NCBI GenBank assembly: GCA_964508705.1 | Contig: CAZDUS010000002.1 | Location: 67,552-131,551 of the forward strand | Direction: 5' to 3' | Origin: an uncultured Verrucomicrobiota bacterium | GTDB taxonomy: Bacteria; Verrucomicrobiota; Kiritimatiellia; CAIKKV01; CAITUY01 | Length of the DNA: 64,000 nt | Shown here: positions 12,019 through 34,324 of the stretch, one piece after another | Layout of the letters: the number at the start of each line of letters is the position of its first letter | Position numbering within the stretch: position 1 is the first letter of the stretch | Position numbers and translations under genes: made by a program | The notes under the pieces: generated by a model | The model's input: the letters and a program-made list of their open reading frames with translations, nothing else | What the model was told of the DNA's origin: nothing | Database searches by the model: none

Positions 12019-12095
12019 GCGCCTGTAGCTCAATTGGATAGAGCGTCAGCCTCCGAAGCTGAAGGTTGCAAGTTCGATCCTTGCCAGGCGCACCA
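12019..12095 (+). tRNA. tRNA-Arg (anticodon CCG)
   Basis: 77 nt. Acceptor stem GCGCCTG/CAGGCGC, D arm GCTC/GAGC, anticodon stem-loop TCAGC-CTCCGAA-GCTGA, T arm GCAAG-TTCGATC-CTTGC, encoded CCA. Confidence 0.9.
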
Positions 12096-28559: not shown

Positions 28560-28595
28560 TTGGACGCGGGGGTGTGGCATGACAAGGGAAGCAAG

Positions 28596-29666
28596 ATGGA
28601 CACATTGAATATTGCACCGGTTTCTGACGGAGAGCGACTCATCACGGGATGGGAGTTTTTGCGGAGTGATCTGGGCGGGATCTGGGAAGCGGTTCGATTG
28701 GTTAAAAAAGGTAATCCCGAGAGTGTTCCGCCGTGGGCACCTGTTACCCTGCCGCATTGTTTCAATGCCACGGACGCTGTTGATCCCGATGTAAGCTATT
28801 ATCAGGGGCCGGGATGGTATCGGACGTATTTAGCGATCAATCAGCCCCATTCCGATGGGCGTGTGGTTTTGCATTTTGAGGGGGCCGGCCAGAAAACACG
28901 CGTGTTTGTATACACCACTGAGGTGGCGCAGCACGTTGGTGGATACGATGAATTCACTGTGGATATCACGAAAGAGGTCAATGAGTTCTTAATGACGGAT
29001 GTTTGCCGGGAGCAGTTTCATTGCCGTGTGCCGGTGATCATCCGATGCGATAATTCACGCGATTTGGAGACTATTCCATCGGATCTGTCGGATTTCAATT
29101 TGTATGGCGGGTTGTATCGATACGTGAATTTGTTGTATCTGCCGCCAGTGTATATCGACCGCGTAACCGTTCAGGCGTCAGCAGGGGCGGTGGGGGGTAG
29201 AGGTGCCTGCGTGATATCGGCGTCGATCAAGAATCATGCCGGGCACGCTTCGGCTGAGGCTGAGATACGTATTTTGGATATGGCGGGTGCCGTTATTGCA
29301 AAGAAGAAGGCAACGTTTCCGGCGGTTTCCGGCAGACATGAACTTTGCAGCATTGAAGTGGACAAGCCGAATCTCTGGTCGCCCGATAAGCCCTATTTGT
29401 ATACTTGCCGTGTGACGGTTAGTTTTCCGTCAGGCAGACATGAAGTGAGTGAACGCTTTGGCTTCCGATCCTTTGAATTCGTGAATAACGGTCCTTTTCT
29501 TTTGAATGGGAAACGGTTGTTGTTGAGAGGGACCCATCGGCATGAGGATCACGCAGGTGTTGGGGCGGCGATGACCGAGGAGATGATTATTGCCGAGATG
29601 ACCCTGATGAAGGAGATGGGGGTTAACTTTATTCGTCTGGCCGTAGCAGATTCCGCTCATCGTTAA
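28596..29666 (+). pseudogene. Glycoside hydrolase family 2 (beta-galactosidase/glucuronidase-like), N-terminal fragment truncated at the start of the TIM barrel
   Basis: Sugar-binding and Ig-like domains are present (WYRT, LWSPDKPYLY, NGKRLLLRGTHRHEDH, MKEMGVNFIRLA). Similarity stops where the conserved HYP of GH2 should follow, and the ORF ends 7 codons later. Confidence 0.8.
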
Positions 29667-30192
29667 GCAATGTTCCGCCATGAGCTTGCCAGAGCCTGGC
29701 GATCGTGGTTTTGCCTGCGCCAGACATCCCGGAAAACAGGATGACCTTGCCATCAACCAGCACGGCGCTGGAATGGACCATGATGGACTCCAGATGGCAG
29801 AAGCGGCCGAGAATGATGGCGCGGTCCTGCGGGTGATACAGGGGGCGAATGAATGGCGCGTCCGGTGCGGGCTGGGGTACAAACAAGTCGCCATGGCTGT
29901 AGTCGCTTGCGATGTGGGCGGCCCTCAACCAACGGGAGGCATGGATGTCGTTGACTTCGATGTCGATGAAATCGCCAGACTCGCGTGTGCGCCAGATTCC
30001 GTTATCCCAGAGAATGCGGCCATCTTCCGGGAGCAAGTTGCCGGGTCTGGCGGTGTAGGTTGCGGCGGGCTGGCCTGCTTTATTGGCGTTGAGGAATAGT
30101 GAGTAATTATCGGGGGGCCGGAGCGGGGGAAGCGTTGAGGAGCCAATAACGCGGAAGTGAGTTTCCGCAAGGGAGAAATCAAGCGTAGTCAC
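29629..30192 (-). pseudogene. HPr-kinase-like P-loop protein, C-terminally truncated
   Basis: 187 aa from a GTG start. The P-loop GMSGAGKTT and LLNDE resemble the HprK-type nucleotide-binding core. The ORF ends 13 aa after LLND, at the junction with the GH2 fragment, so roughly the last third of such proteins appears to be missing. Confidence 0.6.
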
Positions 30193-30199
30193 TGTTTAA

Positions 30200-30378
30200 T
30201 CAGGAAGGGTCAAAGCCAGCGTTGGGTGTCTGCTCCGGAGACTGGGAACAGCAATCGCTGGTCGGGTTGCCTGTCAGGTTTCCGGATTTCGCGCAAGTGT
30301 CGAATGTAACCAGATTCTTGTCTTCAAACCGAACCTCGGTGATGACTGGCGAGACATAAGTTTTTTCGGTTCGCTCAT
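30200..30378 (-). CDS. Candidate RiPP precursor peptide requiring a -1 shift at an A6 run (conceptual 59 aa: MSEPKK|TYVSPVITEVRFEDKNLVTFDTCAKSGNLTGNPTSDCCSQSPEQTPNAGFDPS)
   Basis: ATG at 30378 has a GGAG Shine-Dalgarno 7 nt upstream. The zero frame stops after 34 codons at 30274. The -1 frame is open from the A6 run (30361-30366) to TGA at 30200-30202, 7 nt before the kinase GTG. It has 3 Cys and ends in Ser. Confidence 0.5.
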
Positions 30379-30442
30379 GGTTATTCTCCGCTGATGAGCA
30401 GTTAAACTATCCAGTTAGGGGAGGCGACTCAATCTTAATAAA

Positions 30443-31489
30443 TCAGGGTATTTGTTCGGATTTTGTCAGTTGGCAAAAGAACGAAGGGGCCCCATCCGCC
30501 CGGCCTGTTTCCAGAATGGAGAATGCCGGACAGCAAGCGCACTGACTCCTGTGTTCGCAAGCATCGCAAAGGCCGCCGGGTGCTGGTCGGTTGCGAAGCG
30601 CTGTGAGATGCGCTTTCAACGCTGTCATTGGCGGGCGCGTGGTCAGGTCAAATGGATCCTGGCGCCATGACAGGCAGGGGTGTGCCTGATGTTGGGCGTC
30701 CACATGAACGGTCATGATGCCGGCGCCGCACTCGAACAAGGCGCGCCGTTTGGTGGCCGGGGGTTGAGCAGGCGCTGGTTGTCGTTCGCGATCCCGCCGC
30801 CTGAGTTTGGCGATATCAACGGGGGAAAGTCTTTCGTTCAAGGGGGAAGAGTCGCCGGCGAGGCAGGGGTGGATGATGGCGTCGTACCGGAATCCGCAAC
30901 CCAGGCTGAGCGCCCAGTCGCGCATGGCATCCAATTCATGGGCGTTGGAGTGCATGATCATGGATTTGAGGCGGACAAGGATACCGCGCTTGAGTAGACC
31001 ATCCACGCCTTGACGGAAGCGGCGGTAGGAGCCGGGGGCCCCGGTGACGGCCTCGTAGGTTTGTTCACTGTGCCCGTAGATGGTTAATTCGACGCGGCGG
31101 GGTGGGGCATCCGCCAGGAAGTCCATGAGTGAATCGTCGAGGAGGGTCCCATTGGTAAACAGGGTGAGGAAGAATCCGCATTGCTTGGCTTTGCGATAGA
31201 TGGCCCTGAAATCAGGGCGGGTGAGAGGCTCGCCGCCAGTAAAGACCAGAAAGAGGACCCCCCAGTCCCGCAGGGTTTCAAGCAAGGTTTCCACCTCATG
31301 GGTAGATTTGTCAGGCAGAACGGAGCCGTTGTAGCGGAGGTAGCAATGTTTGCAGGCGATATTGCAGGCGGAGGTCAGTTCAAGGGATGCCACGAAGGGA
31401 AAAGAGGATGCGTGCCAGTCGGAAGCGTGAAGGTCTTCGGCAAATGTGCCTGAGGTGATCTGCTCGATTAGGCAGTCTGTTCCCGTCAT
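30443..31489 (-). CDS. Radical SAM enzyme with C-terminal SPASM/twitch-type Cys cluster (peptide maturase-like)
   Basis: CNIACKHC (CxxxCxxC) lies near residue 42. The C-terminal pattern is CGAG...HPC...CDACEHRSQCACCPA. The start is 3 nt after the PqqD-like stop. Confidence 0.85.
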   Translation of the reverse strand: MTGTDCLIEQITSGTFAEDLHASDWHASSFPFVASLELTSACNIACKHCYLRYNGSVLPDKSTHEVETLLETLRDWGVLFLVFTGGEPLTRPDFRAIYRKAKQCGFFLTLFTNGTLLDDSLMDFLADAPPRRVELTIYGHSEQTYEAVTGAPGSYRRFRQGVDGLLKRGILVRLKSMIMHSNAHELDAMRDWALSLGCGFRYDAIIHPCLAGDSSPLNERLSPVDIAKLRRRDRERQPAPAQPPATKRRALFECGAGIMTVHVDAQHQAHPCLSWRQDPFDLTTRPPMTALKAHLTALRNRPAPGGLCDACEHRSQCACCPAFSILETGRADGAPSFFCQLTKSEQIP

Positions 31490-31492
31490 CGG

Positions 31493-31783
31493 TTACTCCT
31501 GGTGGGAAGGGTTCAAGGCGCCGATGTTGGACATGGCGTCCAGGAATTGTCGCACATCAGCTTTGGCGGCGGACTCCGTCACGGCGTATTCTGAGGTCAG
31601 GCTCTTGATTAGGGAGTTTTCTGTCTGAGCGGTGTGCAATTGACGCCAGAGGAAAGCGGCTGTTTCGTTCAGGGTGTAGAGGGCGTCCAAGCGGGCGGGG
31701 CCGCTTTTCAGGGGGACGAGCATCAGCTTGTTACGGATAGTTCGTTCGACGACGTTTTCTGATTGGATGAAACGAGTACTCAT
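31493..31783 (-). CDS. PqqD-family peptide-binding (RRE) protein
   Basis: 96 aa. ...LVPL....LYTLNETAAFLWRQL......LIKSLTSEYAV....AKADVRQFLDAM matches the PqqD pattern. Only the last third of the listed 273-aa ORF is credible. Confidence 0.8.
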   Translation of the reverse strand: MSTRFIQSENVVERTIRNKLMLVPLKSGPARLDALYTLNETAAFLWRQLHTAQTENSLIKSLTSEYAVTESAAKADVRQFLDAMSNIGALNPSHQE

Positions 31784-31793
31784 GTGGGGGTGG

Positions 31794-31822
31794 ATTATAG
31801 TGTGGCGATGGGGTAGCAACAA
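31794..31822 (-). promoter_or_regulatory. Candidate sigma70-type promoter of the PqqD-rSAM cassette
   Basis: The minus strand reads TTGTTG-17 nt-TATAAT, with the -10 box ending 10 nt before the PqqD ATG. This implies a very short or absent 5' UTR. Confidence 0.35.
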
Positions 31823-31937: not shown

Positions 31938-33161
31938 ATGGATTTCCAGAAGTTGTTTGCGGAGCGGATAGGCGGAGTTACGTTCGGCACGAAGAACGAG
32001 ATATACAAGTTTGAAAAGATCAAGAGAGCCAAGGCGGCGGCACGCGCGGCCCGGCCAACGGTGGAGTTGCTGGATTTCGGAGTTGGGGAACCCGACCAGA
32101 TGGCGCCAGCACCGATCAGGAAGGCGCTTAAGAAGGCTGTAGATGATCCGGCAAACCGAGGGTATGCCGACAATGGCATCCGGGAGTTCAAGGTAGCGGC
32201 GGCGGAATACATGGCCAAGTTTTTCGGGGTGACAGGTCTTGACCCCGAGACGGAGATCACGCACAGCATTGGATCGAAGCCGGCGTTGGCCATGTTGCCG
32301 CTTTGTTTCATCAATCCCGGCGATGTGGCATTGGTGACGGTGCCGGGTTATCCGGTGCTGGCGACGCACACGCGATATCTGGGCGGGGAAGTGGTCAAGG
32401 TGCCGCTTCGCAAGGAGAATGGATTTTATCCGGCGCTCGACAAGCTGGACCCCGAGGTAGTGCGACGTGCGAAACTGCTCTATGTGAACTATCCGAACAA
32501 TCCCACGGGGGCGGCTCCTACGGAGGAATTGTTTGATGAGCTGATTGCGTTCGCGAAAAAGAACAACATCCTGATTGTGCAAGATGCGGCTTATGCGACA
32601 TTGGTTTACGGGCGTGAGCCGTTGTCCATTCTCAGTCGTCCGGGCGGGAAGGACGTGGCGATTGAACTGCATTCGATGAGCAAGAGCTACAACATGACAG
32701 GCTGGCGCCTGGGATTTGTGGCTGGGGCCCCACGCATTGTTCAGGCTTATGCCGAGGTGAAGGACAATATTGATTCCGGGCAATTCAAGGCGATTCAATT
32801 GGCGGCATGCGCAGGGATTGCCGACAAGGCGCTGTCCGACAAGATCAAGAAGCATTATGAGCGGCGGTTGCGCAAGATGGTCAAGGTTCTGAAGCGGGTG
32901 GGCTTCAAGGCGAAAATGCCGGGTGGGACCTTCTACCTTTACGTTCCGGCTCCGAAGGGTGCGGGAATGACAGTGTTCAACACGGCGGAAGATGCCTCGC
33001 AGTATCTAATCCGCGAGTGTTCTATCTCGACGGTTCCCTGGGATGATGTCGGGACGTTCCTGCGCTTCTCAGCGACGTTTGAAAGCGCTGGGAAGGCTGA
33101 TGACGACAGGGTTATTGCCGAGTTGGAAGAGCGCTTGCTGAAGGCTGACCTGAGGTTTTAA
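31938..33161 (+). CDS. dapL: LL-diaminopimelate aminotransferase-like class I PLP aminotransferase
   Basis: 407 aa with YKFEKIKRAK...LDFGVGEPD, NYPNNPTG and SMSKSYNMTGWRLGF motifs typical of the DapL family. Confidence 0.7.
   Translation: MDFQKLFAERIGGVTFGTKNEIYKFEKIKRAKAAARAARPTVELLDFGVGEPDQMAPAPIRKALKKAVDDPANRGYADNGIREFKVAAAEYMAKFFGVTGLDPETEITHSIGSKPALAMLPLCFINPGDVALVTVPGYPVLATHTRYLGGEVVKVPLRKENGFYPALDKLDPEVVRRAKLLYVNYPNNPTGAAPTEELFDELIAFAKKNNILIVQDAAYATLVYGREPLSILSRPGGKDVAIELHSMSKSYNMTGWRLGFVAGAPRIVQAYAEVKDNIDSGQFKAIQLAACAGIADKALSDKIKKHYERRLRKMVKVLKRVGFKAKMPGGTFYLYVPAPKGAGMTVFNTAEDASQYLIRECSISTVPWDDVGTFLRFSATFESAGKADDDRVIAELEERLLKADLRF

Positions 33162-34249: not shown

Positions 34250-34324
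<75 letters not shown>

Follow-up and report, generated by a model that had tools for sequence, protein, structure and literature searches.

A probable remnant of a conserved radical SAM and HPr-kinase-like peptide gene cluster in an uncultured Kiritimatiellia bacterium

Our analysis of a 64,000-nucleotide stretch of DNA from an uncultured Verrucomicrobiota bacterium of the class Kiritimatiellia (positions 67,552 to 131,551 of contig CAZDUS010000002.1; hereafter, the window) concerns four tightly packed reading frames on its minus strand (29629 to 31783), which encode a PqqD protein, a radical S-adenosylmethionine (rSAM) protein, a small peptide, and an HPr-kinase-like P-loop protein. Comparison with related loci makes it probable that these genes are what is left, after decay, of a conserved cluster of the ribosomally synthesized and posttranslationally modified peptide (RiPP) type, the predicted product of which is a cysteine-crosslinked peptide with a phosphorylated terminal serine. 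Intact relatives combine a stand-alone PqqD-type recognition protein, one to three rSAM maturases with a SPASM-like domain, a precursor of 50 to 80 amino acids with a lasso-like leader, usually three cysteines and a C-terminal serine, and an HPr-kinase-like enzyme, and many of them also encode a nucleotidyltransferase (NTP_transf_5) and a peptidase resembling S26 enzymes of the SipW/archaeal type. A previous reading of these genes, made from the sequence alone, had proposed a four-gene candidate RiPP cassette. That proposal is supported for the family, not for the window's copy as a working system, in which the precursor is frameshifted and the kinase is short of about 100 residues; similarly, the four genes do belong together, but the list was incomplete, since relatives add the peptidase and the nucleotidyltransferase.

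Rereading the sequence confirmed most of the layout described by this sequence-only reading. The TAA of the PqqD gene lies 3 nucleotides before the ATG of the rSAM gene, and the 348-amino-acid rSAM protein carries both CNIACKHC and a C-terminal cysteine cluster. The distance from the rSAM stop codon to the ATG of the peptide gene (30378) is 64 nucleotides, not 62 as had been stated. The long frame of the precursor ends with a TGA at 30202 to 30200, 7 nucleotides before the GTG (30192) of the P-loop gene, an open reading frame (ORF) of 187 codons that includes GMSGAGKTT and LLNDE. As the reading frame of the PqqD protein, a mechanically called 273-amino-acid ORF from a TTG at 32314 was rejected because it overlaps dapL and is unused in related contigs; the same 96-amino-acid PqqD gene as in the window was called in two of these, L001 and L120.

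The state of the window's copy became apparent from an alignment with Logan contig L001, which is 99.7 % identical to window positions 34278 to 29638 with one gap only. This gap is a single A, with seven A residues in L001 and six in the window (30361 to 30366). As a result, the ATG frame of the window's precursor runs into a stop after 34 codons, and the -1 frame, which encodes ...KKTYVSPVITEVRFEDKNLVTFDTCAKSGNLTGNPTSDCCSQSPEQTPNAGFDPS up to its own stop codon, is without an ATG, GTG, or TTG start. With the seventh A of L001, the ATG frame is uninterrupted and yields a 59-amino-acid peptide, MSEPKKTYVSPV...FDPS.

The similarity to L001 breaks off at window position 29638, within codon 183 to 185 or so of the kinase gene, where ...CTGCTACGGCCA is followed by GACGAATAAAG... 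in the window and by ACCGCCGACACC... in L001. The L001 kinase has 286 amino acids, about 100 codons more than the window ORF, and 3' of it lie a convergent S26-like peptidase gene and a gene containing an NTP_transf_5 domain; comparison with L001 found none of these downstream genes elsewhere within the window. Past 29638, the window continues as the antisense of a glycoside hydrolase family 2 (GH2) gene, likewise truncated within the region for the catalytic domain, the protein ending ...GVNFIRLA in the middle of the TIM-barrel domain; its equivalents in contigs L120 and L121 match Glyco_hydro_2_N, Glyco_hydro_2, and Glyco_hydro_2_C. One lesion of the window is the loss of 1 nucleotide; the other is a deletion of several kilobases through which two convergent genes became joined tail to tail. 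Judging from the comparison with L001, the latter removed the genes for the peptidase and the nucleotidyltransferase, together with the 3' third of the kinase gene at one edge and the 3' part of the adjoining GH2 gene at the other. The broken GH2 gene had previously been regarded as a sign that the cassette is an accessory insertion. This argument falls, as the GH2 gene was broken by the same deletion that cut the kinase gene; its break is the far edge of that deletion, and the idea that the cassette was inserted into GH2 was rejected on this ground.

Both lesions recur outside the window. The same run of six A residues and the same junction sequence are present in L120 (99.9 kb) and L121, contigs from two different Joint Genome Institute (JGI) metagenomes, which is a strong argument against an assembly artefact. 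Furthermore, the genes encoded in a third sample include the same 187-amino-acid truncated kinase beside a truncated GH2 gene, and the window's proteins, including this ORF beside the truncated GH2 gene, are found on a 137-kb NCBI contig. Missing from the kinase remnant are the nearly invariant SPWHGE segment and the entire last third of the fold, at the C-terminal end. With the precursor frameshifted, the kinase cut, and the partner genes lost, the window's copy should therefore make no product; we regard it as a dead remnant in which only the PqqD and rSAM genes seem intact. Compared with L001, the kinase remnant shows 7 substitutions in 555 nucleotides and the rSAM gene 4 in 1047 nucleotides, a difference in density that fits relaxed constraint on the remnant, although the numbers are too small to test. 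The differences in the remnant are bunched at 30082 to 30124, namely, three at 30115 to 30117, two at 30082 to 30083, and one at 30124. A Kiritimatiellia metagenome-assembled genome (JBIKMI010000302.1, 994 to 1911; locus L008) holds the same cassette in independent decay: its rSAM gene breaks off at codon 305, ahead of the CX2CX5CX2C motif, where it meets a convergent 468-amino-acid rmuC-like gene, and beyond the cut there is neither a peptide gene nor a kinase gene.

To place the cassette in a family, we gathered 124 loci by exact look-up and scans and labeled their six-frame ORFs with iterated profile searches seeded by the cassette proteins; the 36 loci with an rSAM protein matching that of the window at an E value of 1e-40 or less make up the nonredundant set. 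In total, the searches returned 345 precursor clusters, 178 rSAM clusters (homologues at an E value of 1e-10 or less), and 74 kinase clusters. Among the 36 loci, the usual arrangement is PqqD, rSAM, peptide, kinase, in this order or permuted. The kinase gene is present in 29 of the 30 nonredundant loci with enough flanking DNA, the decayed L008 being the sole exception; a homologous ORF of 50 to 80 amino acids lies between the rSAM and kinase genes in 28 nonredundant loci, and the PqqD gene adjoins the rSAM gene in nearly all related loci. The order seen in the window is that of L001 to L007, L122 to L124, and relatives at 30 to 38 % rSAM identity. The finding that a PqqD protein, a homologous small cysteine-containing peptide, and an HPr-kinase-like protein almost always accompany the rSAM gene bears out what the sequence-only reading had suggested looking for. 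Since this gene order and a homologous peptide recur in dozens of unrelated contigs, the association is far beyond chance. The genomic surroundings differ wholly from locus to locus, as expected of a self-contained accessory module. The lineages that carry the family include Nitrospirota, Acidobacteria, Kiritimatiellia, Omnitrophica, and others, mostly uncultured. Close relatives were rare in the genome scan, which yielded L007 and L008 only, the other 31 matches being generic rSAM proteins; the metagenome scan, run with very general patterns from a 20-sequence alignment, returned mostly relatives of 24 to 38 % identity and speaks for breadth only.

Some relatives depart from the single-rSAM arrangement of the window. 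Two or three rSAM genes surround the kinase gene in L054, L055, L059, L062, and L067. L068 is also among these multi-rSAM relatives and has two tandem precursor genes, the second of which encodes, like that of L059, a longer precursor with five cysteines. When the peptides and the gene counts of these loci were compared, no simple relation between the number of rSAM genes and the number of precursor cysteines emerged.

The PqqD assignment is firm, the 96-amino-acid protein matching the Pfam PqqD model at 2.8e-14 (53.6 bits, with a cut-off of 23.4 bits). Its best NCBIfam models are two for lasso-peptide PqqD chaperones (5e-9 and 4e-7), followed by ScmD (7e-5), all below their cut-offs, with 36 of a required 70 bits on the lasso chaperone model; that lasso models come first is consistent with the lasso-like Y-x-x-P leader of the precursors. 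The 348-amino-acid protein matches Pfam Radical_SAM at 6.7e-22. Of the four profile families that the sequence-only reading had named, these two were thus matched, as had been expected; HprK-type models were matched but below their cut-offs, and the SPASM model of Pfam was not matched by the window's rSAM protein. In 34 rSAM homologues, the CX3CX2C motif (CNIACKHC; C42, C46, and C49) is invariant, and so are all seven C-terminal cysteines (C254, C272, C308, C311, C317, C320, and C339), the number expected for two auxiliary clusters.

No full-length NCBIfam rSAM family was found for the window's rSAM protein; the named models that match it cover only the N-terminal 160 to 190 residues or so, and consequently no reaction type can be transferred from them. 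In profile searches of solved proteins, the nearest were the sactipeptide maturase SkfB (7e-23) and PqqE (5e-18, over nearly the full length), followed by SuiB, BlsE, and CteB. An AlphaFold2 model (mean predicted local distance difference test [pLDDT] score, 87) was matched by Foldseek to MoaA, SkfB, SuiB (TMq, 0.69), PqqE, CteB, and an anaerobic sulfatase maturase (anSME). The possibility that the rSAM protein is a sulfatase maturase, which the earlier reading had itself raised against its proposal, was rejected, since PDB sequence matches at an E value of 1e-5 or less include no such enzyme, anSME being a generic fold match at rank 16 or beyond, and since there is no sulfatase gene in the neighborhoods examined (L001 to L006 and L122 to L124). 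By sequence and model, these comparisons place the protein among the peptide-modifying SPASM/twitch rSAM proteins, a placement that does not itself fix the reaction; thioethers formed from the three conserved cysteines of the precursor would be the most economical guess.

Those cysteines belong to a peptide family that combines a conserved leader with a variable core. Homologous peptides are encoded between the rSAM and kinase genes of L003 to L007, of L122 to L124, and of distant loci. An alignment of 19 of them shows an invariant Tyr and Pro in a leader of the form (K/R)-K-x-Y-x-x-P-x-h-x-x-V, as well as two invariant cysteines; the consensus in the window's clade is ...KK-x-Y-x-x-P-x-I-T-E-V-x-F-E-D-K-x-L-V-x-F-x-x-C-x-K...C-C...(D/N)-(P/L)-S. 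A Y-x-x-P-x-L motif is the leader motif of lasso-peptide precursors, where it is read by their PqqD-type B1 proteins (PMC10368454). The 345 peptide clusters came from a profile search of a 5.8-billion-protein collection and are all unnamed or called "hypothetical," and no NCBIfam or Pfam model matches any of the precursor peptides. We counted cysteines and C-terminal residues in 120 of these database peptides, most of which come from one Nitrospira/Acidobacteria-type clade and are not independent observations: a terminal Ser is found in 118 of them, and the number of cysteines is exactly three in 117. The two without a terminal Ser are a fused or truncated ORF and a peptide (P0290) that continues for 7 residues beyond the usual ...GPRPS end, which may reflect the loss of a stop codon or a natural variant. 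The peptides of the loci themselves, with very different cores, end in Ser in 26 of 31 complete distinct cases. The weight that the sequence-only reading had given to the terminal Ser is therefore borne out by its near invariance over very divergent cores.

What remains of the window's kinase retains H140, G155-x2-G158-x-G160-K161-T162, and D178-E179. Compared with the published residues of the lasso-peptide kinase BsfK, H148-G163-G166-G168-K169-S170-D186-D187, the spacing is identical (15/6/17), and this motif is conserved among the characterized lasso-peptide kinases (PMC10368454), in agreement with the HPr-kinase type proposed earlier. In an alignment of 40 homologues, the His, the Walker A G-K-T, and the Asp are invariant, and the segments G-x-S-G-x-G-K-T-T and P-W-H-G are invariant or nearly so. 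NCBIfam models were matched below threshold only (HprK_rel_A, 1.7e-5; ScmC, 3.5e-4; HprK_rel_B, 1.1e-3). Precomputed matches to the Pfam family ScmC (PF27840) are listed for almost all kinase homologues, marked "weak" for L001 and L003 and unmarked (E value of 1e-5 or less) for L122, with none on record for the truncated kinase of the window (P0121). A profile of the family aligned with Lactobacillus casei HprK/P over MHGV...GDSGVGKS...IADDRV (3.4e-4; 1jb1/2qmh) and also with ATP-dependent phosphoenolpyruvate carboxykinase (PEPCK). In line with this, an AlphaFold2 model of the full-length homologue P0122, which is 58 % identical to the intact L001 kinase (pLDDT, 94.7), was matched by Foldseek to ATP-dependent PEPCK (3e-7) and HprK/P (1kkl; 1.4e-5; TMt, about 0.5). 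The model has an extra N-terminal beta-rich domain of about 125 amino acids.

The biochemistry of such kinases is known from lasso peptides. Linear lasso precursors serve as substrates for HPr-kinase homologues, which phosphorylate them at the C-terminal Ser (PMC8498205). PsmK, which acts on the C-terminal Ser and is inactive as a D158A/D159A mutant, at the residues equivalent to those of the motif above, is followed by the nucleotidyltransferase (NTP transferase) PsmN, which adds a hexose to the Ser phosphate (PMC6993621). The RiPP recognition element (RRE) protein BsfB1 stimulates BsfK, and the leaders concerned carry YxxPxL (PMC10368454).

Two further genes probably belong to the cluster. 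An S26-like peptidase gene lies beside the cassette in 16 loci; its product has S-M-x-P and H-R-V motifs, shows no evident membrane anchor at the N terminus, and reaches 1e-8 to 1e-10 with the model for signal peptidase I of the archaeal/SipW type, which falls short of the cut-off. A gene with the Pfam domain NTP_transf_5, an "uncharacterised nucleotidyltransferase" (1.9e-24 in L122), lies beside it in 12 loci. We keep both as likely members of the cluster because in distant clades they have the orientation of the cassette and directly adjoin either its kinase gene or its last rSAM gene; in the window's clade, membership is less certain. In L001 (5409 to 6866) and L007 (8612 to 10606), the NTP_transf_5 domain is followed in the same protein by a long C-terminal extension that weakly matches "Amuc_1099 family pilus-like system protein," and a PorU/C25-type peptidase gene comes next; all of this may belong to a neighboring surface-protein system or to the cluster. 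In L122 (390 to 6691), genes for a SAM methyltransferase, an OEP (TolC-like), an RND-type adaptor (MFP), a MacB-type ABC ATPase and permease, and a HEAT-repeat protein lie on the same strand directly 5' of the intact cassette and plausibly form an export and tailoring extension of the cluster in that genome. L124 (8292 to 9081) has two opposite-strand genes (DUF6036, 173 amino acids, and a 93-amino-acid protein) between the precursor and kinase genes, which look like a small two-gene module that landed inside the cluster.

Several known systems share parts of this design. The clusters for phosphorylated or phosphoglycosylated lasso peptides that we compared, those of paeninodin (PadeK), pseudomycoidin (PsmK and PsmN), and Bradymonas bsf (BsfK, BsfN, and BsfB1), likewise have a stand-alone PqqD-type RRE, a Y-x-x-P-x-(L/I/V) leader, Ser-ending precursors, and an HPr-kinase-like enzyme with H...GxxGxGK(S/T)...D(D/E) at identical spacing, and in psm and bsf, as often in the present family, the kinase is paired with an "uncharacterised nucleotidyltransferase." Unlike those clusters, the present family has an rSAM/SPASM-like maturase as its class-defining enzyme, an S26-like protein as its candidate leader peptidase, and cysteine-rich cores. 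It also resembles the maturases of sactipeptides, ranthipeptides, and other RiPPs (SkfB, CteB, PapB, AlbA, SuiB, and PqqE), with which it shares the CX3CX2C core, a cysteine-rich domain for auxiliary clusters, a cysteine-containing peptide substrate, and, as far as its genes suggest, dependence on a PqqD-type RRE, although here the RRE is a separate protein rather than an N-terminal fusion. By analogy, the system looks like a hybrid in which the maturation of sactipeptides or ranthipeptides is joined to the branch that tailors phosphorylated lasso peptides.

A related design already registered is SynChlorMet, an in silico definition (TIGR04248 ScmD, TIGR04249 ScmC, TIGR04250 ScmE, and TIGR04251 ScmF) that also unites a PqqD relative, rSAM/SPASM proteins, and the HprK-like ScmC. 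As a further resemblance, rSAM genes flank the kinase gene on both sides in the multi-rSAM relatives L054, L055, L059, L062, and L067. Unlike SynChlorMet, which has two rSAM/SPASM genes (ScmE and ScmF), the window's clade has a single one, and the scores fall far short of the cut-offs (ScmC, 20 of 125 bits; ScmD, 23 of 100; ScmE, 66 of 400; ScmF, 50 of 400), L067 also remaining below the equivalog cut-offs. By these scores, the cassette clearly lies outside the SynChlorMet equivalog families, yet it would be of the same broad design and belong to the same Pfam ScmC superfamily. We found no paper on SynChlorMet in a literature search with incomplete coverage of subscription journals. Mycofactocin biosynthesis (MftA, MftB, and MftC, the peptidase MftE, and the glycosyltransferase MftF) likewise joins a PqqD-like chaperone and an rSAM/SPASM enzyme to a small precursor with an invariant C-terminal residue. 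The present system shares with it the chaperone, the rSAM/SPASM enzyme, the small precursor, a peptidase, and a group-transfer enzyme, and the rSAM protein is partially matched by mycofact_rSAM (1.2e-21). In contrast to mycofactocin, this match reaches 77 of the 265 bits required, the precursor has no C-terminal Val-Tyr but conserved cysteines, and a kinase is present.

From gene content, conservation, motifs, folds, and lesions, we infer every step of the following model for the intact relatives. The PqqD protein would bind the Y-x-x-P leader and present the linear precursor to the rSAM enzyme, which, with its SAM cluster and two auxiliary clusters, would crosslink the core cysteines, most likely through thioethers of the sactipeptide or ranthipeptide kind. 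The kinase would then use ATP to phosphorylate a Ser hydroxyl in the linear precursor, most likely the one borne by the C-terminal Ser; the RRE may assist it as BsfB1 assists BsfK. The nucleotidyltransferase may decorate the Ser phosphate in the manner of PsmN, the S26-like peptidase is a candidate for leader removal, and the product would be exported where a transporter is present.

A number of observations weigh against this model. In the window's kinase, Glu stands for the second Asp of the BsfK motif and Thr for the Ser after the Walker Lys; the kinase reaches no curated cut-off, its best score being 24 bits with a cut-off of 200 bits, and its fold matches are modest, with TM scores of 0.3 to 0.5. 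BsfK itself targets Ser3 rather than the terminal Ser (PMC10368454), so that homology to such kinases does not fix the target residue, and the case for the terminal Ser rests on its pattern of conservation; a few peptides of the family end in Cys, Thr, Asp, or Gln. For the rSAM protein, the missing Pfam SPASM match goes together with a cysteine motif of CX2CX5CX2C instead of the canonical CX2CX5CX3C, and structure searches cannot separate thioether formation from other rSAM chemistry. Finally, both accessory genes are convergent with the cassette in the window's clade, where pilus-like and PorU-like genes adjoin them, and could there be part of an adjacent system.

The HPr-kinase-like (ScmC-type) protein could act as something other than a precursor kinase: it may be a phosphatase or phosphorylase, may depend on ATP as a scaffold or chaperone in the rSAM step, or may be a kinase of another substrate, with the terminal Ser put to some other use, for example recognition by the rSAM enzyme or by the peptidase. 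Its subthreshold family matches would allow this, as would the bifunctionality of HprK/P ("kinase/phosphorylase" and "kinase/phosphatase" in PDB titles), the identity of the best fold match, PEPCK, as a small-molecule kinase, and the N-terminal beta-rich domain of about 125 amino acids, to which no role is assigned. We nevertheless consider it unlikely, given a full catalytic motif at the exact spacing of proven peptide kinases, the tight linkage to a precursor with a near-invariant C-terminal hydroxyl residue, and the co-occurrence with NTP_transf_5, which recalls the psm and bsf clusters, in which the one enzyme works after the other. It also appears quite improbable that the cluster makes a small molecule or cofactor, the peptide being a scaffold from which a peptidase cuts the C-terminal Ser once the rSAM enzyme, the kinase, and the nucleotidyltransferase have modified it, as in mycofactocin or PQQ formation. 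A PqqD protein, an rSAM/SPASM enzyme, and a small peptide are the signature of those pathways too; PqqE is among the best solved relatives with near-full-length coverage, and mycofact_rSAM and PqqE are among the partial NCBIfam matches. Moreover, the C terminus is the most conserved position of an otherwise widely variable core, and a peptidase and a group-transfer enzyme lie alongside the cassette. However, three cysteines kept across clades (117 of 120) at variable spacing are what a crosslinked product predicts and would be needless for excision, the precedents for this kinase type are peptide-tailoring enzymes, and the MacB-type ABC exporter, MFP, and OEP adjoining the L122 cluster are as for a secreted peptide. 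A lasso-peptide cluster, to which the chaperone matches of the PqqD protein and the leader and kinase motifs might point, has next to no probability: neither a lasso cyclase (asparagine-synthetase-like) nor a B2 transglutaminase-like protease is present in the Pfam-annotated neighborhoods (L001 to L006, L120, and L122 to L124), an rSAM maturase always takes their place, and the PqqD protein stays below the cut-off of the lasso model.

As for the window's copy, it might still be functional if -1 ribosomal frameshifting on CCG-AAA-AAA-C restored the precursor and the 187-amino-acid kinase fragment were active. The required shift is indeed -1 and falls on a run of six A residues, and such a run, decoded by tRNA-Lys, is a known slippery context; the remnant retains the His, P-loop, and D-E motifs, and the PqqD and rSAM genes are intact. 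However, intact relatives have a plain run of seven A residues without any frameshift, so that the run of six is a derived lesion, and G-AAA-AAA is not a canonical X-XXY-YYZ heptamer; no stimulatory structure was noticed either, although no search was aimed at one. The kinase is short of about 100 residues, among them the invariant P201/G204 segment as well as three helices and strands of the fold, the genes for the peptidase and the nucleotidyltransferase are missing, and substitutions per nucleotide are more frequent in the kinase remnant than in the rSAM gene; we therefore rate a functional copy as very improbable. That both lesions are sequencing or assembly artefacts and that the organism has an intact cluster, for which the intact contig of 99.7 % identity (L001) might be cited, is also to be considered, as errors in homopolymer length and chimeric joins are common in metagenome assemblies. 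The chance of this is very slight indeed in view of the recurrence of both lesions in L120 and L121 and of the 187-amino-acid ORF beside a truncated GH2 gene in the third sample and on the NCBI contig; furthermore, the junction joins two ORFs tail to tail without read-through ambiguity. We thus hold to the reading of the locus as a probable decayed copy of a conserved RiPP-type cluster, the features of which are collected in Table 1.

Table 1. Features of the cassette and its deletion junction, in window coordinates
Feature	Positions	Strand	Remarks
PqqD-family peptide-binding (RRE) protein	31493..31783	-	96 amino acids, ATG 31783 to TAA 31493; seemingly intact
Radical SAM maturase with SPASM-like C-terminal domain	30443..31489	-	348 amino acids; seemingly intact
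Shine-Dalgarno-like GGAGAA 5' of the precursor ATG	30384..30389	-	Direct sequence reading
Precursor-peptide pseudogene	30200..30378	-	ATG at 30378; homologous intact 59-amino-acid orthologue in L001/L002
Run of six A residues, site of the 1-nucleotide loss	30361..30366	-	Seven A residues in L001 (alignment)
HPr-kinase-like (ScmC-type) P-loop gene, 5' remnant	29638..30192	-	GTG start at 30192; about 183 to 185 codons
Deletion junction, kinase remnant and GH2 remnant tail to tail	29637..29638		Similarity to L001 stops at 29638
GH2 glycosidase gene, 3' truncated	28560..29637	+	ORF continues to a stop at 29666 in the kinase antisense

Other features of the window stand apart from the cassette. A tRNA-Met gene (CAT; 34250 to 34324, minus strand) lies about 2.4 kb past the PqqD end of the cassette, beyond dapL and two small genes, and a tRNA-Arg gene (CCG; 12019 to 12095, plus strand) lies farther away. 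The GC skew is positive across the whole window (1 to 64000), at +0.09 to +0.34 per 4-kb block with a mean of about +0.22; it is independent of gene strand, does not change sign, and is well above the few per cent usual in bacteria.

Beyond the single locus, we entertain the idea that the family constitutes a distinct RiPP class, in which cysteine crosslinking by rSAM enzymes would be combined with lasso-type leader, RRE, kinase, and nucleotidyltransferase tailoring, so that the invariant C-terminal Ser would bear a phosphate, either alone or with a sugar or nucleotide attached through it, and with a soluble leader peptidase of the S26 type. We hold this to be possible rather than probable. 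The sequence-only reading had stated that it knew of no characterized example of a peptide both crosslinked by an rSAM enzyme and phosphorylated. To the extent that we found no experimental work, this stands: literature searches with incomplete coverage of subscription papers returned no paper on an rSAM cluster with an HPr-kinase-like enzyme, and those on HPr kinase, RiPP, and rSAM together led to a single genome-mining paper of 2014, where the kinase comes up as part of lasso clusters. It has to be qualified in that the related SynChlorMet/Pfam ScmC set is registered in silico.

The message of the window itself, a fossil locus, is more modest; the decay seen there and in L008 shows that such cassettes are readily gained and lost. 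The family offers RiPP chemists a sizeable target for genome mining, with precise predictions of mass shifts and with precursors that have no NCBIfam model, and it points to a possible function for "ScmC" proteins. If the predicted chemistry is true, these clusters would represent a new way of assembling RiPP pathways, in which a module so far demonstrated by experiment only in lasso-peptide clusters, consisting of the PqqD RRE with its YxxP leader, the Ser kinase, and NTP_transf_5, is joined to rSAM maturases and a different peptidase.

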